64,000 bases of DNA from a virus (taxonomy: Duplodnaviria > Caudoviricetes), in IMG/VR virus record IMGVR_UViG_3300020450_000008, one strand, 5' to 3'. The notes under the pieces were generated by a model that made no database searches, was not told the DNA's origin, and worked only from the letters and a program-made list of their open reading frames with translations. Both the position numbers and the translations under genes were made by a program. Positions 1,484 to 53,086 of the stretch are shown in pieces; the stretch's first letter is position 1, and each line of letters opens with the position of its first letter.

Positions 1484-3700
1484 ATGCAAACAACGTTTGT
1501 TGATACAAGGAAGCTTTTGTCCGAAGCTAAGTTTTATGACGGCTATTCGAGATTCAATGATGAGCAAGAAAGATATGAGACTTGGGATGAAGCAGTAGAC
1601 AGAGTAATGAGTATGCACGAAGGGTTTTACTCATCCAAAATGAATAAAATAACAGAGTACGTAGAAGAAGCAAGAGATGCCTATAAACAACAATACGTGT
1701 TAGGTGCACAAAGAGCTCTACAATTCGGTGGAGAGCAAATATTAAAACATCAGATGAGAATGTACAACTGTACTTCTTCTTATGCTGATAGGCCGGAATT
1801 CTTTGGAGAAGTATTTTATATTCTCCTTTGTGGTGCAGGTGCTGGATTCTCAGTACAGAAACATCACGTTAAAAAATTACCAAAGATACAAGCAAGATCA
1901 AAACAACCAAAGACACATGTGGTAGAAGATTCAATTGAGGGTTGGGCTACTGCAGTAGACGTTTTATTATCATCGTATTTTGTAAATGGTGGTAAGTATT
2001 CAGAGTATGCAGGACGAAGAGTATACTTTGATTTGTCACAGATAAGACCAAAGGGTGCAAAAATATCTGGTGGATTTAAAGCGCCAGGACCAGACGGTTT
2101 AAGACTTGCACTTGATAAAATTGAACACTTATTGCAAGCAGAAATTATTGATACTAAAGATCCTAAGAAGTTAAGACCTATTCAGGTGTATGACATTGTC
2201 ATGTATACAGCAGATGCTGTATTAAGTGGCGGTGTACGTAGATCTGCAACTATCTGTCTTTTCTCACCTGATGATGAAGAAATGATGAATGCTAAAACTG
2301 GTAACTGGTTTATGGATAACCCACAAAGAGGAAGATCAAATAACTCGGCGGTTATTGTGAGAGATGAATCTTCACCAGAAGAGTTTAATAAACTTATGCA
2401 AAGTGTTAGACAATTTGGTGAGCCAGGTTTTGTTTTTGTTAACTCAAAAGAACATACAACAAATCCATGTGTTGAGATCGGAATGTTTCCACAGATCAAA
2501 GGAAAGTCTGGTTGGCAAGGATGTAATTTAACGGAGATTAACGGTGGAAAATGCACATCAAAAGAAGAGTTCTTCAAGGCTTGCAGGGCCGCGTCTATTC
2601 TTGGTACTTTACAAGCTGGATATACAGATTTCAAATTTCTTAGTTCGACTAGTAAAAAGATATTTGACAGAGAAGCACTGATAGGTGCATCAATTACAGG
2701 TTGGATGAATAATCCAGATGTTCTATTTGATGCAGAAGTATTGGAGGAAGGAGCTCGAATTGTTAAAGAAGTTAATAGAGAGGTTGCGGAAGCTATTGGA
2801 ATCAATCCTGCGGCCAGGACCACGTGTGTAAAACCTTCAGGAAACGCTTCAGTATTATTACAAACTGGATCAGGTATCCATGCAGAACATTCTGAAATGT
2901 ATATCAGAAATGTACAAATGACAAAAGATTCAGAAGTTACTGCTGCAATTAAAGCTTCTAATCCTTTTATGGTTGAAGACTCTGTATGGTCAGCAACTGG
3001 ATCAGATGTTGTTGTTTCATTTCCTATTCTGCCAAAAGAAGGTTCAATATTTAAAGATGAACTATTAGGCGTAGATCATTTAGAAAAAGTAAAGCTAGCA
3101 CAAAAGCATTGGGTTGAAGCTGGTACAAATATTGAACTATGTGCAGATGAAGGAGTAAGACACAACGTTTCGAATACAATCATAGTTGATGACTGGGATA
3201 AAGTTGAAAAGTATGTTTTTGAAAACAGAAACTCTTTTGCTGGAATCTCATTTCTACCAATGACAGGTGATAAAGACTACAATCAGGCTCCAAACACTGC
3301 AGTTATTTCTGCCAAAGACATGGTAAAGAAATATGATACAGCAGCAATATTTGCATCAGGATTAGTAGTTGATGGTTTAGATGCATTTGATAACTTATGG
3401 AATGCTTGTTCAACAGCTCAAGGTATGGGTGAAGATCTATCTCTTGAAACATCTGACAATGCTATCAAAAAAGATTGGGTAAGAAGGTTTAATTCTTTTG
3501 CTGAAAATTATTTAGATGGCGATCTTAAGCAAGCGGAATATTGTTTAAAAGATTCTTATCTATTACATAAATGGAATAAGATTAATAAAAACTTTAAACC
3601 AATTACTTGGGAAAATGATCTTACTGAAAAGAAATATACCGAAGTTGATACCTTAGGTGCTGCTGCATGTGCTGGTGGTGGATGTGAAATCGACTTCTAA
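1484..3700 (+). CDS. nrdJ: Class II (adenosylcobalamin-dependent, monomeric RTPR-type) ribonucleotide reductase
   Basis: MYNC, LLCGAGAGFSV, DSIEGW, IRPKGAKISGG, SGGVRRSA, NPCVEI finger loop, GCNLTE, TTCVKPSG and C-terminal CAGGGC; no beta subunit adjacent. Confidence 0.85.
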   Translation: MQTTFVDTRKLLSEAKFYDGYSRFNDEQERYETWDEAVDRVMSMHEGFYSSKMNKITEYVEEARDAYKQQYVLGAQRALQFGGEQILKHQMRMYNCTSSYADRPEFFGEVFYILLCGAGAGFSVQKHHVKKLPKIQARSKQPKTHVVEDSIEGWATAVDVLLSSYFVNGGKYSEYAGRRVYFDLSQIRPKGAKISGGFKAPGPDGLRLALDKIEHLLQAEIIDTKDPKKLRPIQVYDIVMYTADAVLSGGVRRSATICLFSPDDEEMMNAKTGNWFMDNPQRGRSNNSAVIVRDESSPEEFNKLMQSVRQFGEPGFVFVNSKEHTTNPCVEIGMFPQIKGKSGWQGCNLTEINGGKCTSKEEFFKACRAASILGTLQAGYTDFKFLSSTSKKIFDREALIGASITGWMNNPDVLFDAEVLEEGARIVKEVNREVAEAIGINPAARTTCVKPSGNASVLLQTGSGIHAEHSEMYIRNVQMTKDSEVTAAIKASNPFMVEDSVWSATGSDVVVSFPILPKEGSIFKDELLGVDHLEKVKLAQKHWVEAGTNIELCADEGVRHNVSNTIIVDDWDKVEKYVFENRNSFAGISFLPMTGDKDYNQAPNTAVISAKDMVKKYDTAAIFASGLVVDGLDAFDNLWNACSTAQGMGEDLSLETSDNAIKKDWVRRFNSFAENYLDGDLKQAEYCLKDSYLLHKWNKINKNFKPITWENDLTEKKYTEVDTLGAAACAGGGCEIDF

Positions 3701-3846
3701 TGTCTATTATAAAAGTATATCTCATTGAGTGTGAGTACTGTGAAGCTGAATCGCACATAACTTCGCAGTACGAACCTCAATACTGTCCTAACTGTTCCAC
3801 AGAAATAAATGCAGAACATATTAAAGACATTGATGAGGAAGATTAA
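3700..3846 (+). CDS. Small zinc-ribbon protein (48 aa)
   Basis: ATG overlaps the RNR stop (TAATG); MSIIKVYLIECEYCEAESHITSQYEPQYCPNCSTEINAEHIKDIDEED with two CxxC; too short for the ORF track. Confidence 0.7.
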   Translation: MSIIKVYLIECEYCEAESHITSQYEPQYCPNCSTEINAEHIKDIDEED

Positions 3847-45919: not shown

Positions 45920-46108
45920 ATGAAAGATTTAGTGAATGACATAGTAACCTTAGACAGAGTTATAAGACTCTTAGGCAGAGGTGAATTTGAAATAGCTCAT
46001 CATGAAGTTAAAGACTTACTTGAAGCTAAAAAAGCAACTCTAGGTAACGTAAAATCAGAACCTAGTGCAATCGTTAAAAGAATGAGGGAATTAAATGCTA
46101 ACACTTAA
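45920..46108 (+). CDS. Hypothetical early protein
   Basis: ORF in operon. Confidence 0.6.
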   Translation: MKDLVNDIVTLDRVIRLLGRGEFEIAHHEVKDLLEAKKATLGNVKSEPSAIVKRMRELNANT

Positions 46109-46490
46109 AGAAACAATGACATTTATGGCTGAATCGCCATATTCAGGTGACGCTCAAGGAAATCTATTTAAATCATCTTGGGCTGTCAATCCAGGCTTTG
46201 CAAAGCTTCAAGAAAAGCTTGATGAGTTGATACCTGGATCAGGTAAAGTTCCTCATAGTAAATCTAAGAACAAAGCTCTCGAAAAGTTTCGAGTTGCTTC
46301 AAATTTAGTTTACGATCTTTTTAATAACGGTCTTGGAAATAGAAGATCACAGTTCCAAGGTTTCTTTGGTTGGGCGCCTTACACACGAGGCGGAATGACT
46401 AACTCTCAGTTTGAAGAAGCTGAAAGAAAGCTTGAGCCAGTTATAAGTCGAATAATAATTGATGCAGCAAAAGAACAAGGAATAAGTTAA
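46095..46490 (+). CDS. Hypothetical early protein
   Basis: ORF in operon; YDLFNNGLGN motif. Confidence 0.7.
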   Translation: MLTLKETMTFMAESPYSGDAQGNLFKSSWAVNPGFAKLQEKLDELIPGSGKVPHSKSKNKALEKFRVASNLVYDLFNNGLGNRRSQFQGFFGWAPYTRGGMTNSQFEEAERKLEPVISRIIIDAAKEQGIS

Positions 46491-46795
46491 TGAATTTTGC
46501 AAATGATGATGAAAGAAAAGCTTACTTAAGAAAGCTTATTAAAAGAAACTCAACTCTTGGAGAAGCAAGAAGAAAAGCTAAGATCGCCCGTAAAGTTGCT
46601 CTAAAAGAAAAAAATAGAGACAATGGTCTACCTGAATACGCTAAAGATAATAATTCTGCTAATATAAATTATTATACAGACCAAAGAAAGTACGCTAATC
46701 GTTATTATGGCGAGACTATGAGAGAAACTACTAAGCTTGATGACAAGTATAAGAGCGAGTTAGCCGAAGATCTTTTTGATACAGTTGAGGAGTAA
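46490..46795 (+). CDS. Hypothetical protein
   Basis: TAATG coupling. Confidence 0.65.
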   Translation: MNFANDDERKAYLRKLIKRNSTLGEARRKAKIARKVALKEKNRDNGLPEYAKDNNSANINYYTDQRKYANRYYGETMRETTKLDDKYKSELAEDLFDTVEE

Positions 46796-46797
46796 TT

Positions 46798-47037
46798 ATG
46801 AGTAGTGATCCAAGAGAACCTGCAAGAGAGCAGGCTGAAGAAGCCTATCACGGTTTTATAAATTTTACAAAGTACTTTGCATATATAGCTTTAGCTGGCG
46901 TTGTTTTTGTTAGCAGCTGTAACTTCGGTGTAGATGGTACTGGAAGTAAGAGTGATCCAAGTTACTATGAAGACTACAAAGAGCGAATGGAAGAAATGAA
47001 AGAAGAAATAAAGAAGAGAAAGTATGGTGAAACTTAG
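46798..47037 (+). CDS. Single-TM protein resembling aa3-type cytochrome c oxidase subunit IV
   Basis: EQAEEAYHGFINFTKYFAYIALAGVVFV resembles the 'xxTYxGFxxxTKW + TM' pattern of alphaproteobacterial CtaH/CoxIV. Confidence 0.45.
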   Translation: MSSDPREPAREQAEEAYHGFINFTKYFAYIALAGVVFVSSCNFGVDGTGSKSDPSYYEDYKERMEEMKEEIKKRKYGET

Positions 47038-47470
47038 AGAACTAGACATACTTGAAGCTGATATCTTAAAAGAAGATCCAGTTCGTCCACATATTTCAAA
47101 GGCTGATAGACTTTCTGATGGAAGACAAGTTTTTGTTTTAGAGGATAACGATAAGATAACAGCTGTTATTTGTGTTGCATATACTAACGCTATTCCAAAA
47201 GATGAATTTGAGCTCGCTGCTTACAATGCATTCGATGGAAGTTGTGCAATATTTTATACGGTATGGTCATATGAAAAAGGTGCAGGTCGTGAAATCATTC
47301 AAAAAGTTTCTGATCATTTGATGCGAAGAGGTTGGATTAAAAGATATGTAACTTTAAGTCCACTTACTGAAATGGCAGAAAAGTTTCATTTAAGAAACGG
47401 CGCTGAACTAATTTATAGAGGTAAGTACTGTCAAAACTTTGAATATTTTATGGAGTCAGAAAATGCCTAA
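47024..47470 (+). CDS. Conserved hypothetical, possible GNAT fold
   Basis: DPVRPHI, AIFYTVWSYEKGAGREII, VTLSPLTEMAEKFHLRNGA. Confidence 0.55.
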   Translation: MVKLRELDILEADILKEDPVRPHISKADRLSDGRQVFVLEDNDKITAVICVAYTNAIPKDEFELAAYNAFDGSCAIFYTVWSYEKGAGREIIQKVSDHLMRRGWIKRYVTLSPLTEMAEKFHLRNGAELIYRGKYCQNFEYFMESENA

Positions 47471-47741
47471 GCCTTTAAATAAACTGCAACAACTCATGGT
47501 TATTACTATGGAAGAGTGTGGTGAACTTACACAAGAGTGTAGTAAGATTATAAGAAAATATAAAAAATTTAATCAGCTACCTGAAGAAGATATTGATAAG
47601 TTAAAAAAAGAAGCTGCTGATGTGTATGCTATGATTCAACTTATGATACATAACCAATTATTTGACTATGTTGAATTGGAGGTTAACGCAAAGAAGAAAC
47701 ATGAAAAACTAGCAAAATGGAGTACATTATTAAATGAGTGA
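47463..47741 (+). CDS. MazG-like NTP pyrophosphohydrolase
   Basis: MEECGELTQECSK...LKKEAADV (EExxE...ExxD). Confidence 0.75.
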   Translation: MPKPLNKLQQLMVITMEECGELTQECSKIIRKYKKFNQLPEEDIDKLKKEAADVYAMIQLMIHNQLFDYVELEVNAKKKHEKLAKWSTLLNE

Positions 47742-47991
47742 TCAACCATACCACAATAAAGGATTTGGCGTAGCATTTCTATGGATAATCTTAGTTGTGT
47801 TTATATTACCAGTAGTCGCCATGATGACATTAGACGATACTTTTGAAAGGTTCTTACAGAAATATGGAGATCCCTTTACTACCGAGTGTTGGGAAAATTC
47901 TAAACATGAAAAGGTTTGTAAAGGTGAAGTCGAATGCAAGTTTGGCCGTAACTTTTGTATTGATGAAGTATACAGGTGGAGAGCTAAGTGA
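47734..47991 (+). CDS. Hypothetical membrane protein with Cys-rich C-terminus
   Basis: TM helix and four Cys (CWEN, VCKG, CKFGRNFC). Confidence 0.6.
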   Translation: MSDQPYHNKGFGVAFLWIILVVFILPVVAMMTLDDTFERFLQKYGDPFTTECWENSKHEKVCKGEVECKFGRNFCIDEVYRWRAK

Positions 47992-48803
47992 GAATCATAG
48001 CTGGCCCATGCCAACATGAGTCATACGAACAATCATTAGAAATAGCCAAACATTGTAAGAAGTGGTGTGACCACTTTGGATTTGAATATTATTTTAAAGC
48101 TTCTTATGATAAGGCTAACAGAACATCAATGCATTCAGAAAGAGGCAGAGGATTGAAGAAAACTCTTTTTGATTTGTCTAAAATTAAAAAAGAAATTGGT
48201 GTCTCTATCTTGACTGATGTACACGATAGAGAACAACTTAGAACTATTAGAGCTTTCTTTGATCATGTTGTTGATGTTATACAAATACCCGCATTTCTTT
48301 CCAGACAAACAGATCTTATTGTTGATGCCTCTCTAAGTGGTAAAATAATAAATATTAAAAAGGGGCAGTTTATGGCTCCTTGGGATATTAAAGGGATCTT
48401 GAGTAAGACGAAAGGTGCAAAAGATGTTTGGATTACCGAGCGAGGGACTTCTTTCGGATATAATCGTCTTGTCGTCGACTTTGTCGGTATGGTATCTATT
48501 CTGCGCGATCTTGGGAACGCCTGTGTCTTCGACGCTACTCACTCAGTCCAGAGACCTGGAGGAGGTGGTGATAAGAGCGACGGCGATCGTGGGTACGTTC
48601 CTAGCCTTTTGCGGGCCGCAGCTGCTATTGGTGTTGAGTCGTTTTTCTTAGAGGTGCATCCAGATCCTGATAGTGCTCCAAGTGACGGGCCAAACATGGT
48701 TCCATTAGACGCTTTTTATGATATGCTTAATATGATAAACAGAACAAGTTGGAGGAACATTGCAGAAGAATACGGGAAAAGACATCCATTTCGGTCTCTT
48801 TGA
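47988..48803 (+). CDS. kdsA: KDO8P synthase (2-dehydro-3-deoxyphosphooctonate aldolase)
   Basis: IAGPC..ES, FKASYDKANRTS, LTDVH, QIPAFLSRQTDL, NIKKGQF, ERGTSFGY..LVVD, FDATHSVQ.PGG, FLEVHPDP..A.SDG. Confidence 0.95.
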   Translation: MRIIAGPCQHESYEQSLEIAKHCKKWCDHFGFEYYFKASYDKANRTSMHSERGRGLKKTLFDLSKIKKEIGVSILTDVHDREQLRTIRAFFDHVVDVIQIPAFLSRQTDLIVDASLSGKIINIKKGQFMAPWDIKGILSKTKGAKDVWITERGTSFGYNRLVVDFVGMVSILRDLGNACVFDATHSVQRPGGGGDKSDGDRGYVPSLLRAAAAIGVESFFLEVHPDPDSAPSDGPNMVPLDAFYDMLNMINRTSWRNIAEEYGKRHPFRSL

Positions 48804-48954
48804 GAAAAAATGCAGGAAATGCGGTCATAAATCTCATTGTGATGCCGAATGTATGGAATGTTATAACGATATATGCACAGGGTGTAGTTGTGAAAAATGC
48901 GATCCTGATTGCATATTGGCTCTGGGGGGTGGAGTCGAACCACCACGTCATTAG
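48760..48954 (+). CDS. Cys-rich metallothionein-like small protein
   Basis: KKCRKCGHKSHCDAECMECYNDICTGCSCEKCDPDC: 10 Cys in about 35 aa; overlaps the kdsA end and the antisense tRNA. Confidence 0.5.
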   Translation: MQKNTGKDIHFGLFEKKCRKCGHKSHCDAECMECYNDICTGCSCEKCDPDCILALGGGVEPPRH

Positions 48955-49001
48955 ACAACGTATAAACAGTACGCCGCGTCTACCAATTCCGCCACCCCAG
49001 A
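48917..49001 (-). tRNA. Atypical tRNA-Asn(GTT)-like gene with long variable arm and U37; CCA encoded
   Basis: Minus strand: TCTGGGG TG GCGGAATTGGTAGACGC G GCGTA-CTGTTTA-TACGT TGTCTAATGACGT GGTGG-TTCGACT-CCACC CCCCAGA G CCA; complete cloverleaf of 85 nt. Confidence 0.88.
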
Positions 49002-49006
49002 TTAAA

Positions 49007-49834
49007 TTATGCGGCTTTCGCTTGTCTCCACTCTTGAGCTTTTTCGACTGCTGCTATCATTCTTGTCATGCCGATTCCTCCGCCAACTCTTGGAAAGAAA
49101 TCCATAGCTAAGAAGTCTTTAAGCTCTTGTTCAACTCTATCTTTTCCAAATAACTTGTAAAGAAGTTCAGCGTACTTACCTTCACTGATTGTATGAAATG
49201 TATGAGACATTTGTTCTTTATCTGTACTTCTTTCGGCTGATCCAATTGTTTCCATACCGTTTAATATTACATCAATCTTTTTACTTGTCAGTTCATTGTC
49301 GTGTCTTGACATATTCCAAAATGGTGATGTAAATTCTGGAAAGTTTGTAATCATTCCCCAGCCAATCTCGTCTTCATGCTCATTTTCGATCTCTTCAACT
49401 TCAAACTGATCTTGCCACTCTTTGTATGTTCTAATATCAAGTTCTGGAAATCCAAGATATTCACATAGTTCAAGTTCCATTGCTTTGAGATCATCTACGT
49501 CTCCTGGAAACTCAAATTCAAACATTGGGAATATAGTCTCATGACGACCTTCTACTGGTCTTGGTTCTTGTCTGTAGGAAGTGGAGACACAAAAAAACCC
49601 GTTCTCTGACGGGTTAGTTAACAACTCATATTCGAGCCACATCTGGCCCGTTTGCGGTAACGGCCATATATTACCATTGTATTGATATGTAGCCACTGTT
49701 TCTGGATCTTCGCAAGCTGCCAGTATACTCAGTCTATTTTGAGTATGAACTTCATGAAAGCCTTTAGATAAAAAAAAGGACCTTAAAAGGTCCACTGTTT
49801 TTGTAAATTTTTGCGGTTTGATAAGCGATGTCAT
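49007..49834 (-). CDS. Class IIb aminoacyl-tRNA synthetase paralogue (Asp/Asn/Lys family catalytic domain only; asparagine synthetase A-like/EpmA-like architecture)
   Basis: Motif 1 region (LLRSFFLSKGFHEVHT), motif 2 (SYRQEP..GRH..FPMFEFE), ETIGSAER, motif 3 (GGGIGMTRM); no N-terminal OB-fold; ATG 49834 preferred over ORF start 49861. Confidence 0.85.
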   Translation of the reverse strand: MTSLIKPQKFTKTVDLLRSFFLSKGFHEVHTQNRLSILAACEDPETVATYQYNGNIWPLPQTGQMWLEYELLTNPSENGFFCVSTSYRQEPRPVEGRHETIFPMFEFEFPGDVDDLKAMELELCEYLGFPELDIRTYKEWQDQFEVEEIENEHEDEIGWGMITNFPEFTSPFWNMSRHDNELTSKKIDVILNGMETIGSAERSTDKEQMSHTFHTISEGKYAELLYKLFGKDRVEQELKDFLAMDFFPRVGGGIGMTRMIAAVEKAQEWRQAKAA

Positions 49835-49896
49835 TTTTCTTTCTTTCTGTAAATGTTGCACAATTGTAGTATATATAAGATTTTTTTAAAAAAACG

Positions 49897-49925
49897 TTTA
49901 CAAATGAAAAAAAATATGATAGAAT
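49897..49925 (+). promoter_or_regulatory. sigma70/T4 early-type promoter, divergent from the aaRS-tRNA unit
   Basis: TTTACA-17 nt-TAGAAT. Confidence 0.7.
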
Positions 49926-49932
49926 AGATATT

Positions 49933-50271
49933 ATGACAATGCATTTAGTGAGAGGTATGACGTCCCTCAGTACAAAAAGACGCAAAATGAAAAAGAAACC
50001 TGGTTGGAATAAAGCCTTATCAGAGCATGAAAAGTTCTTAAAAAAGATGGGTGTAGAGGATCGTCCCAAGTCAAACTTTAGATCCGATATTCCTGATTAT
50101 ACAACTCGTAAAACAGCTCCAACATCAAATAATATTGGCAATGGAATTAAAAAAAACATAAATACATATACTGGAGATCAGATAATTGGTATCAGTGCTA
50201 TGCATAAATCTAATTTGGTTCCAGTGTCGAATAAAAAGAATGCAATTGATATGGCAAAAATGAGGAGATAA
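49933..50271 (+). CDS. Conserved T4-like hypothetical protein
   Basis: MTMHLVRG..., YTGDQIIGISAMHKSNLVPV. Confidence 0.7.
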   Translation: MTMHLVRGMTSLSTKRRKMKKKPGWNKALSEHEKFLKKMGVEDRPKSNFRSDIPDYTTRKTAPTSNNIGNGIKKNINTYTGDQIIGISAMHKSNLVPVSNKKNAIDMAKMRR

Positions 50272-50540
50272 TGTTTACGATAGAATATGACCATGATGAG
50301 ACTGTCACGACTGTCTTGGATAATGATGGAAAGCATGAAGATCTTCAGTTGATTATAGGCGATAAATCCGTATATATAAGACAATATAATCCGGGAAAAA
50401 AGACTTATGATTTAATTGAAATATCACCTTTCATGTTTCAAGAACTTATGAAATCAATGGAATACCCAGAAGGTTCTTATTTAACTACCGGAAGATTTCT
50501 ACCAGACAGGACGACACCGAATGGAACGAAAATATATTGA
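50271..50540 (+). CDS. Conserved hypothetical protein
   Basis: MFTIEYDHDETVTTVLD..., VYIRQY, MEYPEGSY. Confidence 0.65.
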   Translation: MFTIEYDHDETVTTVLDNDGKHEDLQLIIGDKSVYIRQYNPGKKTYDLIEISPFMFQELMKSMEYPEGSYLTTGRFLPDRTTPNGTKIY

Positions 50541-51321
50541 CGTCTTAAACGACGGAAAATTAAATATGTGGATAGATATATCTACGTACTGCAATGCATC
50601 TTGTCCAGAATGCCATAGAACAGATATTGAAAATGGCGGCCTAGGAAAAGTCCAATGGCTTCCTCTTGTTCAATGGACTTTTGAAGAATTTAAAAAATCC
50701 TATCCGCCATCTTTTGTTAGTAAAACTAATAGATGGGAATTTTGTGGTACATGGGGAGATCCTGTAATGAATAAGGATTTATTGGATATATGCCAATACG
50801 TCTCTGATAATACTCCAGTTGATGGTGCTGTTGAAATCGATACAAATGGTAGTATAAGACCTTTAAGCTGGTGGGAAAAACTAGGAAAGATAGGCAAAAT
50901 AAAAGTTGATTTTGCTATTGAAGGTATTACTCAGGAAATGCATTCTTTATATAGAAGAAGAACCGATCTAGCAAAAATATTGGCTAATATGAAACGCTTT
51001 ACGGACGCTGGTGGTATTGCAACTGGATTCTGTGTTATACACAAACACAATCAAGATCACCTTCTTGAAATAGAAAATTTATGTAAAGCTTATGGCGCTG
51101 TATTTGTAGACTTTATAGAATCTAATAGATTTAATAAGTCTCCTTTATTTCATTTTTTTAACGAAGAAGATAAAATTGAAGTCCTAGAAAAACCTACTAA
51201 CTATCAATTTCCTGGAGAAGTTAATCATTATGGAAAAACAATACAACAAAAAAATAATACCACAGAGTGGCAGTTACTAGCCCGGCAGGTAGAAAATATC
51301 AAAGAAGAACCAGATATATGA
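50521..51321 (+). CDS. Radical SAM protein
   Basis: CNASCPEC CxxxCxxC, FCGTWGDP, EIDTNG. Confidence 0.9.
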   Translation: MERKYIDVLNDGKLNMWIDISTYCNASCPECHRTDIENGGLGKVQWLPLVQWTFEEFKKSYPPSFVSKTNRWEFCGTWGDPVMNKDLLDICQYVSDNTPVDGAVEIDTNGSIRPLSWWEKLGKIGKIKVDFAIEGITQEMHSLYRRRTDLAKILANMKRFTDAGGIATGFCVIHKHNQDHLLEIENLCKAYGAVFVDFIESNRFNKSPLFHFFNEEDKIEVLEKPTNYQFPGEVNHYGKTIQQKNNTTEWQLLARQVENIKEEPDI

Positions 51322-51334
51322 ATAAGGAGTAAAA

Positions 51335-51664
51335 ATGAGTATTGATATAAAGTGCGAGTGGTTGAGTCAAGATAAAATCTTAGTCAATCCAGATGGTCAA
51401 GTATTTCCTTGTTGTTACCTCGCAAATAAATATTATAGAATAGCTCAACAAAAATGGGATATGAAATTTGCATATCGCGAAGAACAAACTGATGATATAA
51501 TCTTCAATTACAAAGAAAATGAAAAAGATCTGAATATAAAAAATAAAACAATGGAAGAAGTTCTTTCTCATAATTGGTATACAAAAGATCTTCCTGAATC
51601 TTGGAAGACCAGAGAAACTGCTAACGATATATGTGTAAAATTTTGTGATCATGGAAATGAGTAG
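51335..51664 (+). CDS. Stand-alone SPASM/twitch Fe-S domain protein
   Basis: C(EW)...VNPDGQVFPCCYL...ICVKFC. Confidence 0.75.
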   Translation: MSIDIKCEWLSQDKILVNPDGQVFPCCYLANKYYRIAQQKWDMKFAYREEQTDDIIFNYKENEKDLNIKNKTMEEVLSHNWYTKDLPESWKTRETANDICVKFCDHGNE

Positions 51665-52526
51665 AATTATATTTTCTGTCTATATTGATCCCAATGAAAT
51701 ATACAATGGTGATCCTTTAGATTTTAAATCAGCGCAGTTATCAAAACACTTAAAGGCCTTAAAATACAAACAAGAAGAATACGCTAAAATATGCGATGCT
51801 GATTATAGGATATATGAGTTAGATGACGCCTATAGGTTATTTCTGGACAAGCTTGATGATCTCGAAGTATTTGAGACTCAATATCAATGTATTCAACATT
51901 ATAAACATTATCTTATGAATGAGTTATCAAATTCGTATGATGAAGTTCTTTACTTAGATTTAGATGTCTTTATTAATACTAAAGAGAATATATTTGAGAC
52001 CTTTAATCTTTCAAATGGTATTGGCATTTATGGATATTTAGATGATAAACCTGAAGATCAAAAAAATATAAAAGAAGGTTGGCTTTCATATATTCCAAAA
52101 CATACAAGTGTATCTGTTAAAACTGCTGCGATGATGTCTCTTTGTGCAAATTTAAAGTGTACATTTCCTAATTATGTTTTTAATACTGCAATAATGCTTG
52201 TAAATAAAAAATATTGTAATAAGATTAATTATATGAACGAACTAAAACATATAAAAGAAACAATAGATGATTTGAAAGAAAATGATGATTGGTGGGCAGA
52301 CTATATTAGAAATTATTTTTCAATCAATAATGAAACGGCACTATCATATCTGGTCCATAAGAATGGTGTTAAATGGCAATCAATAGGACCAGAATGGCAT
52401 TATCCTTATAATAGTAGGAATCAAGCATATGATATACCTGAAGATTCTAAATTTATTCATGTAATTAATAAAGATTTTGTCAAAGTATTTTCTAAATTTA
52501 ATTACTGGGAGTGGTGTTACATATGA
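51645..52526 (+). CDS. Glycosyltransferase-like protein (GT-A)
   Basis: YDEVLYLDLDV, FNTAIML, NETALSY, FIHVINK. Confidence 0.7.
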   Translation: MIMEMSRIIFSVYIDPNEIYNGDPLDFKSAQLSKHLKALKYKQEEYAKICDADYRIYELDDAYRLFLDKLDDLEVFETQYQCIQHYKHYLMNELSNSYDEVLYLDLDVFINTKENIFETFNLSNGIGIYGYLDDKPEDQKNIKEGWLSYIPKHTSVSVKTAAMMSLCANLKCTFPNYVFNTAIMLVNKKYCNKINYMNELKHIKETIDDLKENDDWWADYIRNYFSINNETALSYLVHKNGVKWQSIGPEWHYPYNSRNQAYDIPEDSKFIHVINKDFVKVFSKFNYWEWCYI

Positions 52527-52627
52527 TAGAAACTTTGGTAACCTTATGGTTGATAGAAATAACTGTTACATTTTTGTCACACGTTAAATAAAAAAATAAA
52601 AAAAATCACTTTTATTGAAAATAATCG

Positions 52628-52656
52628 TTTACATTCTCTCTTTTTTATGGTAGATT
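52628..52656 (+). promoter_or_regulatory. Strong early-type promoter (operator-associated class)
   Basis: CGTTTACA-17 nt-TAGATT, then AATAGTATAAGG. Confidence 0.75.
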
Positions 52657-52688
52657 AATAGTATAAGGTAAATAAAAAAGGAAGATAA

Positions 52689-52865
52689 ATGAAAGATATT
52701 TTTGATTATAACAATGTAATAGGCATCCTGATTGGTATGTCTACTGCGCAAAAAGAAACTCTAGCTGAAAAGCTTGTAGACAGATTTCCTTCAACCACTT
52801 ATGATTTTGCATCTGAACTAATGATCAAGTTGCAGGACAAAGAAGCTGAAGAAGGAGTACTATAA
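52689..52865 (+). CDS. Hypothetical early protein (58 aa)
   Basis: SD AAGGAAG; MKDIFDYNNVIGILIGMSTAQKETLAEKLVDRFP... Confidence 0.65.
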   Translation: MKDIFDYNNVIGILIGMSTAQKETLAEKLVDRFPSTTYDFASELMIKLQDKEAEEGVL

Positions 52866-53086
52866 TGATAGCTATGACAAATACAAAAGGTTTAACATAT
52901 GCAGCAATCATGCTGAAAGTTAAAGATCTTCAAGAGTTAATAACTACTTACAATGCAATTATGGCTGGTCAACTTAACATTGATGAAGATTTGATTAGCA
53001 ATAAAATATTAAAAATGGCTGATGAGTTAGGAATCGATCATGACGAACTTGCCGATCTTGCAACCGCAAACTTTGGAGTTCAGTAA
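52865..53086 (+). CDS. Hypothetical early protein
   Basis: TAATG coupling. Confidence 0.65.
   Translation: MIAMTNTKGLTYAAIMLKVKDLQELITTYNAIMAGQLNIDEDLISNKILKMADELGIDHDELADLATANFGVQ

Follow-up and report, generated by a model that had tools for sequence, protein, structure and literature searches.

A mobile phage cassette pairing a proposed minimal AsnRS-like class IIb enzyme with a long-arm tRNA(GUU)

The nearest known relatives of the locus reported here are asparaginyl-tRNA synthetase (AsnRS), whose class IIb catalytic domain follows an N-terminal OB-fold anticodon-binding domain, and two stand-alone class IIb enzymes without such a domain, namely the archaeal asparagine synthetase AS-AR (‘AsnRS2’, PDB 3P8T), a core of about 290 aa, and EpmA (GenX/PoxA, PDB 3A5Y), which has the pocket of a lysyl-tRNA synthetase (LysRS) and transfers its activated amino acid to a protein acceptor as the lysyl transferase of EF-P. 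On the RNA side, GUU and the discriminator base G73 are identity elements for AsnRS and for non-discriminating aspartyl-tRNA synthetase (AspRS), and an ordinary bacterial tRNA-Asn has U1-A72, G73, a variable loop of 4-5 nt and A37. Here we analyse a stretch of 64,000 nt from a Caudoviricetes virus (IMG/VR record IMGVR_UViG_3300020450_000008; the whole stretch is called the window), the minus strand of which encodes a stand-alone class IIb catalytic core followed at once by a tRNA(GUU) with a long variable arm. We favour, with moderate confidence, the explanation that the cassette pairs a minimal AsnRS-like enzyme with the tRNA onto which that enzyme loads asparagine.

The synthetase gene (49007..49834, minus strand) encodes 275 aa and ends with a TAA stop (49007-49009), after which a 5-nt spacer, TTTAA (49002..49006), leads to the first base of the tRNA at 49001. 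The open reading frame (ORF) itself, 49007-49861, opens with GTG, and ATG 49834, which gives the 275-aa product, is most likely the start codon; the homologue alignments begin at that residue. The 85-nt tRNA (48917..49001, minus strand) carries an encoded CCA end and was called by both ARAGORN and Rfam RF00005 (46.1 bits), and its fold is also seen in the covariation described below. It is the only tRNA within the window, and the synthetase with its tRNA is the sole credible minus-strand gene from position 1 to about 55,900 among ORFs of at least 110 aa. The preliminary description of this DNA, which had reported a minus-strand island in about 55 kb of plus-strand genes, holding a class II protein of about 275 aa whose stop lies 5 nt before a complete CCA-ending GUU tRNA, is therefore borne out in its anatomy.

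The enzyme is a class IIb core and nothing else. The Pfam model of the class II D/K/N core, PF00152, matches residues 11-271 (E 1.9e-14; 53.9 bits against a cut-off of 25) and was the only hit in a Pfam scan of the 275-aa protein, with no second domain; with the core beginning at residue 11 there is no space for an anticodon-binding domain, confirming the earlier view that the OB-fold is missing. Motif 2 (YRQE...GRH..F.MFEFE) and motif 3 (GGGIGMTR) are present, as had also been noted. The AlphaFold2 (AF2) model of the protein (pLDDT 96.7) shows the class II antiparallel-sheet fold and aligns solely with the catalytic domains of class IIb enzymes, with VIA Z of 26.2-24.9 and 21-23% identity for AsnRS (e.g. 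PDB 8H53, 2XGT, 9SH8, 1X54), 25.2 for archaeal-type AspRS, 23.5 for AS-AR, 23.4 for GenX and about 23 for LysRS, the differences being small within a range of 22-26 across all class IIb cores. The family profile gives 57.6 bits with AsnRS, 53.7 with archaeal-type AspRS, 32.1 with AS-AR and 27.5 with GenX, so that the AsnRS catalytic domain is the best match by fold as well as by profile; compared with it, the phage core is about 30 aa shorter.

To read the amino-acid pocket, we aligned 56 family members with 24 AsnRS, 25 archaeal-type AspRS, 2 bacterial AspRS, 1 LysRS and 2 Thermoproteota cores, one of which stands alone (L162) while the other is cut off by the contig end (L163). The phage enzyme shares motifs 2 and 3 and the ATP- and Mg-binding residues with AsnRS, and at the columns that discriminate AsnRS from AspRS it is mostly of the AsnRS type. 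Column 63 is G in the family and in AsnRS and P in AspRS; column 104 is M, M and S, respectively; column 106 is E, E and D; and column 198 is G, G and S/T. At column 67 the family has L, AsnRS G or A (L in eukaryotic AsnRS) and AspRS K. The sole AspRS-like position among these columns is P171, where AspRS also has P and AsnRS has A. The aspartate-binding Lys of AspRS (in QSPQxxK) and its motif 2 Asp are thus replaced by Leu67 and Glu106. Q64 and R202 agree with AsnRS and AspRS, whereas LysRS has Glu at both columns, and E108 of the family stands where LysRS has Tyr. L67, E68, M104, E106 and G198 are invariant in the 92 locus proteins, as are the ATP, Mg and adenylate residues R88, E90, H98, F102, D188, E195, R202 and R258 (92/92), and Q61/Q64, L67 and E106 are invariant in the phage family. 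From the AsnRS-type discriminating residues together with the invariant ATP/Mg residues, the pocket appears to be an asparagine-type one and the enzyme seems competent for catalysis, adenylate formation included.

The partner tRNA combines features of two tRNA kinds. Its acceptor stem is UCUGGGG/CCCCAGA with U1-A72 as the first pair and G73 as the discriminator; the D arm, like that of tRNA-Leu in stem and loop, has a 3-bp stem and the loop AAUUGGUAGA; the anticodon loop, CUGUUUA, holds the GUU anticodon and an unusual U37; and the variable region of 13 nt forms a GUC-UAAU-GAC stem-loop. Across 24 related tRNAs, the cloverleaf cells are standard-paired in 100% of cases and 17 of the 23 cloverleaf pairs show compensatory changes, values that none of 500 shuffles reached, which indicates that the cloverleaf is more than chance and is under selection. 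Position statistics were taken over 47 distinct copies. U1, A72, G73, G34, U35, U36, G18, G19 and the T loop are invariant in 47/47, and CCA is encoded in 45/47, the two exceptions being those of P-SSM2 and P-SSM7. Position 33 is U in 42 copies, C in three and A in two; position 37 is U in 41, C in three, A in two and G in one, leaving a purine there in 3/47. The variable arm ranges from a 5-nt loop, found in 3/47 copies (L064, L066, L077), to about 35 nt with a stem of about 10 bp (L030). A covariance model built from the cassette tRNAs (R1) gives 101 bits on the window tRNA, and its second-best targets are phage tRNA-Leu genes with 60-74 bits; therefore, by its sequence, the cassette tRNA joins a leucine-type body to the anticodon and acceptor end found in bacterial tRNA-Asn. 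The likeness to tRNA-Leu (type II) lies in the D arm and the variable arm, while tRNA-Leu has A73 and every cassette tRNA has G73; from ordinary bacterial tRNA-Asn it differs in its long variable arm and U37. An ordinary phage tRNA-Asn, with a 5-nt variable loop and the anticodon loop CUGUUAA, is found in a related record (L098). ARAGORN by itself overlooked or misnamed many of the long-arm copies.

The gene and the tRNA travel together. In 69 of 85 phage loci, those of P-SSM2, P-SSM5 and P-SSM7 among them, the special tRNA comes immediately after the gene on its 3’ side, and in most related loci 4-12 nt separate the stop codon from the tRNA. Mapped on the protein tree, the tRNA occurs throughout both main clades, and its absence at several unconnected points is consistent with loss or relocation. 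We compared window positions 46000-53000 with all fetched loci by blastn. Syntenic contigs (L007, L009) match across 46.5-52 kb, whereas the otherwise unrelated contigs L006 (90% nucleotide identity) and L008 (85%) share with the window only 48917..49838 (minus strand), a segment bounded by the final base of CCA and a point 4 nt upstream of the ATG. In P-SSM2, P-SSM7 and the window, different genes flank the cassette. Because L006 and L008 share exactly the gene and the tRNA, these comparisons indicate that the pair is inherited and transferred as one unit. In L006 (2497-3418) and L008 (2497-3472) the homology breaks off precisely at these two points, the A of CCA and 4 nt ahead of the ATG; a border that coincides with the mature 3’ end of a tRNA could reflect recombination directed to tRNA ends or transfer by way of a processed RNA.

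The family to which the enzyme belongs is PHROG 29758, annotated as of unknown function (E 5.9e-144; residues 1-264 aligned to positions 1-266 of a profile with 267). Its members in P-SSM2, P-SSM5 and P-SSM7 are 71-73% identical to the window protein and are labelled ‘tRNA ligase’ in GenBank; in our literature search the gene appeared only as a table row, ‘T4-GC 194 tRNA ligase’, for P-SSM2 and P-SSM7, and no functional study was found, so the enzyme-tRNA pair is uncharacterised in the literature searched. All 8000 of the 8000 scored candidates from marine metagenomes have E <= 0.001, the family forms 664 clusters at 50% identity at that threshold and 441 at E <= 1e-10, and most full-length proteins among the matches listed are about 260-300 aa long. 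Among species-representative genomes, six metagenome-assembled genome (MAG) contigs carry a family member, at least one of which (L086) is a contig identical to a viral record (L067). Judged by these searches, the family is very abundant in ocean metagenomes and nearly absent from cellular genomes.

If the cassette works as we favour, enzyme and tRNA would probably be made as one transcript, begun at a promoter-like site near 49890 (TTTAAA-16 nt-TACAAT, 49863..49890, minus strand; a consensus match only), from which RNase P would free the tRNA 5 nt past the stop codon with its CCA end already encoded. No terminator was found downstream of the tRNA; two terminator-like hairpins sit within the synthetase gene. 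Contigs from RNA libraries span the junction between gene and tRNA (X19, 48917-49069; X18, 48883-49018), a weak sign of a joint transcript and no proof because DNA carry-over is possible. Asparagine would be activated to Asn-AMP in the AsnRS-type pocket (Q61, Q64, L67, E68, M104, E106, R202) and then moved to A76 of the cassette tRNA. Since the enzyme has no anticodon-binding domain, it would have to recognise this tRNA through the acceptor end, U1-A72 and G73, and the GUU anticodon would be retained through the decoding of AAY codons, not through the enzyme. The outcome, and the possible benefit to the phage, would be an additional source of Asn-tRNA(GUU), self-contained and transferable between phages; Asn makes up 6.5% of the residues in the window ORFs, with AAT and AAC in a ratio of 3:1. 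That the enzyme and its tRNA act as a pair was one of the alternatives in the preliminary description and is still the best reading, but the proposed recognition through the long variable arm is rejected, because copies that are conserved in other respects have arms of anything between 5 and about 35 nt, so that the arm is no identity element. More tentatively, we suggest that the enzyme might be the first natural class IIb tRNA-charging synthetase without an anticodon-binding domain, reading only U1-A72/G73 of a chimeric tRNA with a Leu body and an Asn identity, that U37 and the body might let this tRNA evade host tRNA cutting or shortage, and that the two together might form a mobile charging-and-decoding cassette.

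Several observations weigh against asparagine charging of the cassette tRNA by its enzyme. We know of no class IIb enzyme without an anticodon-binding domain that charges a tRNA, and neither of the two known domain-less relatives, AS-AR and EpmA, is known to do so. A host AsnRS or non-discriminating AspRS could charge the cassette tRNA, for which it has the identity elements GUU and G73, and this would make the phage enzyme dispensable. U37 in most copies and a base other than U33 in 5/47 are unusual for a decoding tRNA. The curated models all score far under their cut-offs, with 13.9 bits against 342.6 for AsnRS (TIGR00457), 18.6 and 14.8 bits against 368 and 443 for AspRS (TIGR00458 and NF001750), 20.1 bits (E 2.7e-4) against 389 for AS-AR (NF005055) and 13.1 bits against 286.9 for EpmA/GenX (TIGR00462). 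The family also departs from AsnRS and AspRS at several residues that neither of them varies, namely the motif 1 Pro (Gln32), the Glu before the adenine-stacking Phe (Ile101), the His of PHGG (Arg249) and the motif 3 Glu (Thr257). In the catalytic-domain tree, the sampling of which was limited to AsnRS from one bacterial phylum and AspRS from one archaeal phylum, the family members group as a single clade (support 100), whose long stem joins outside AsnRS and AspRS; therefore, as far as this tree reaches, it is a separate, deep class IIb lineage and not a recently truncated AsnRS.

The distribution of the tRNA also counts against the favoured explanation. Sixteen of the 85 phage loci and all distant relatives, in huge phages and in the six MAG contigs, have no special tRNA nearby, so that the co-occurrence the preliminary description had proposed to survey holds for close relatives and does not extend to distant ones. 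The tRNA-less loci retain every key active-site residue, which implies that the enzyme does not need the tRNA in cis. In whole-record searches, one tRNA-less record had no tRNA-Asn other than an ordinary one of 76 nt, distant from the gene; a 484-kb huge phage had an ordinary tRNA-Asn, and a 201-kb record that is about 57% complete had none. Given the intact residues at these loci and the records with an ordinary tRNA-Asn, the enzyme may also act on ordinary tRNA-Asn, or it may have a role independent of tRNA.

Among the other explanations, it seems unlikely that the cassette tRNA is charged for a non-ribosomal donor role (envelope, peptide or small molecule) or serves mainly as a decoy or replacement that resists host tRNA cutting. 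The decoding positions that are otherwise the most conserved, 33 and 37, are relaxed as this would have it, with C or A replacing U33 in five copies and position 37 mostly not a purine, and there is a precedent for the second part: E. coli tRNA-Asn(GUU) is among the tRNAs cut by AriB, the nuclease of PARIS, whose targets share U36-A37-A38-U39, and phage T5 tRNA variants, including tRNA-Asn, neutralise it (bioRxiv 10.1101/2025.02.04.636281). The cassette tRNA reads U36-U37-A38-U39; it is comparable with the T5 variants (tRNA-Lys/Thr/Asn) as a phage-encoded tRNA-Asn(GUU) in which the context of the anticodon loop and stem is altered. T5, however, has no synthetase of its own and its tRNAs depend on host enzymes. 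The altered sequence UUAU is a possible escape from a tRNA-cutting nuclease, a lead and not evidence. On the other side, none of the 47 copies departs from GUU or from the canonical elbow (G18, G19, T loop), in keeping with ribosomal use; no transferase accompanies the cassette, since the neighbours differ from phage to phage; and a PADLOC search gave no family match.

It is quite unlikely that the enzyme is a tRNA-independent asparagine synthetase like AS-AR or AsnA (Asp + NH3 + ATP -> Asn) with which a tRNA-Asn co-travels for asparagine supply. The architecture is alike, in both cases some 270-290 aa of core with no anticodon domain, and AS-AR is close in fold though weak in profile, as the Z of 23.5, the 32.1 bits and the E of 2.7e-4 given above show. 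Homologues without a nearby tRNA keep the active site, and one of them (L091) is flanked by pyrimidine-synthesis genes, which use aspartate-derived intermediates. However, the signature SMIL(H/Y)KQ with an AspRS-type Asp, read off the 3P8T alignment and present in AS-AR and a Thermoproteota homologue, is absent from the phage family, which has QTGQxxLE and Glu instead; the AspRS-type Lys/Asp pair that holds the carboxylate in AS-AR is missing, its place taken by the invariant Q61/Q64, L67 and E106. The NF005055 score also lies far below its cut-off, a purely metabolic enzyme would not need exact joint transfer with a tRNA, and AS-AR, to our knowledge, is not linked to any tRNA gene. Free asparagine synthesis, another of the alternatives first proposed, is accordingly weakened. 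Charging with aspartate in the manner of AspRS, followed by GatCAB, was also considered and judged unlikely, the Lys/Asp pair being absent from the family. Finally, a role like that of EpmA towards EF-P, in which the phage enzyme would load its amino acid onto a protein or some acceptor other than tRNA and leave the charging of the tRNA to host enzymes, is very improbable: EpmA/GenX shares the domain-less class IIb architecture and the transfer of an activated amino acid to a macromolecule, matches well in fold (Z 23.4), and homologues without the tRNA exist, but the LysRS/EpmA pocket is not shared (Q64, R202 and E108 against Glu, Glu and Tyr in LysRS), TIGR00462 scores far under its cut-off and no candidate acceptor protein is conserved beside the gene.

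If the enzyme does charge its tRNA with asparagine, a class IIb synthetase can operate through acceptor-end recognition alone, phages carry not only tRNAs but the means of charging them, and a compact natural enzyme-tRNA pair of about 920 bp would be of interest to genetic-code engineering. The pair also bears on the question of phage tRNAs in general, as tRNA supply and tRNA-cutting defences decide some infections, examples being PARIS and, reportedly, the loss of tRNA expression in marine Synechococcus (PMC11726456). The pair is open to study in the cultured phages P-SSM2, P-SSM5 and P-SSM7 on Prochlorococcus NATL1A/NATL2A.

The virus itself encodes a ribonucleotide reductase, a baseplate wedge tail fiber connector and a baseplate tail-tube cap, the last of which is at most 32% identical to its best match (Phage C48C1) and 24% identical to that of Pelagibacter phage HTVC008M. 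A megablast search with 24 kb and a tblastn search with a 597-aa ORF gave no hits, and some 50,000 phage records, cultured or deposited, contain no relative at the DNA level. On these comparisons it is a novel marine T4-like myovirus lineage, and placing it as a close relative of the cultured cyanomyoviruses, which we also considered, is wrong by the same searches and the low identity of the tail-tube cap. An alphaproteobacterial host, hinted at in the preliminary description, could not be established, the structural genes being at most 32% identical to those of any cultured phage.

Other features of the cassette’s surroundings, in the window and in related records, are as follows. A gene of the DAHP_synth_1/KDO8P-synthase family (47988-48803, E 1e-49) is indeed the ‘kdsA’ described as lying next door, and the changing gene neighbourhoods of P-SSM2, P-SSM5, P-SSM7, the window and L006/L008 give no support for a link between it and the cassette. 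Upstream of the synthetase gene, a second promoter-like site, again a consensus match, points the other way towards the plus-strand neighbour (49897-49925, plus strand). Near the synthetase gene of related viral contigs, ARAGORN reports permuted tmRNA-like genes (L018, L063 and L085 at about 2028-2414, minus strand; L072 at 3386-3703, plus strand), with tag peptides ANDNRAPAMALAA and ADENLALAA. In the Chitinophagales MAG contig L091 (1927-5175), the family member lies between dihydroorotate dehydrogenase and a PyrE-PyrF-like fusion (PF00156 + PF00215), with no tRNA near it. In the huge phage LR756501 (L004, 3937-5499), the family member stands between a family B DNA polymerase, before it, and a RimK-like ATP-grasp protein, after it, and a cluster of five tRNA-Leu genes lies about 100 kb away. 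Convergent to the cassette of the window is a Cys-rich ORF of 64 aa with several CxxC motifs (48760-48954, plus strand), the final 38 nt of which are antisense to the tRNA gene; a Pfam search with it gave no match, and it is kept in the syntenic contigs L007 (87% amino-acid identity) and L009 (77%). A radical SAM protein (PF04055; 50521-51321, plus strand) is followed by a separate 109-aa SPASM iron-sulfur ORF (PF13186; 51335-51664, plus strand), and by their domains the two look like a split radical SAM/SPASM enzyme, two genes from the cassette.

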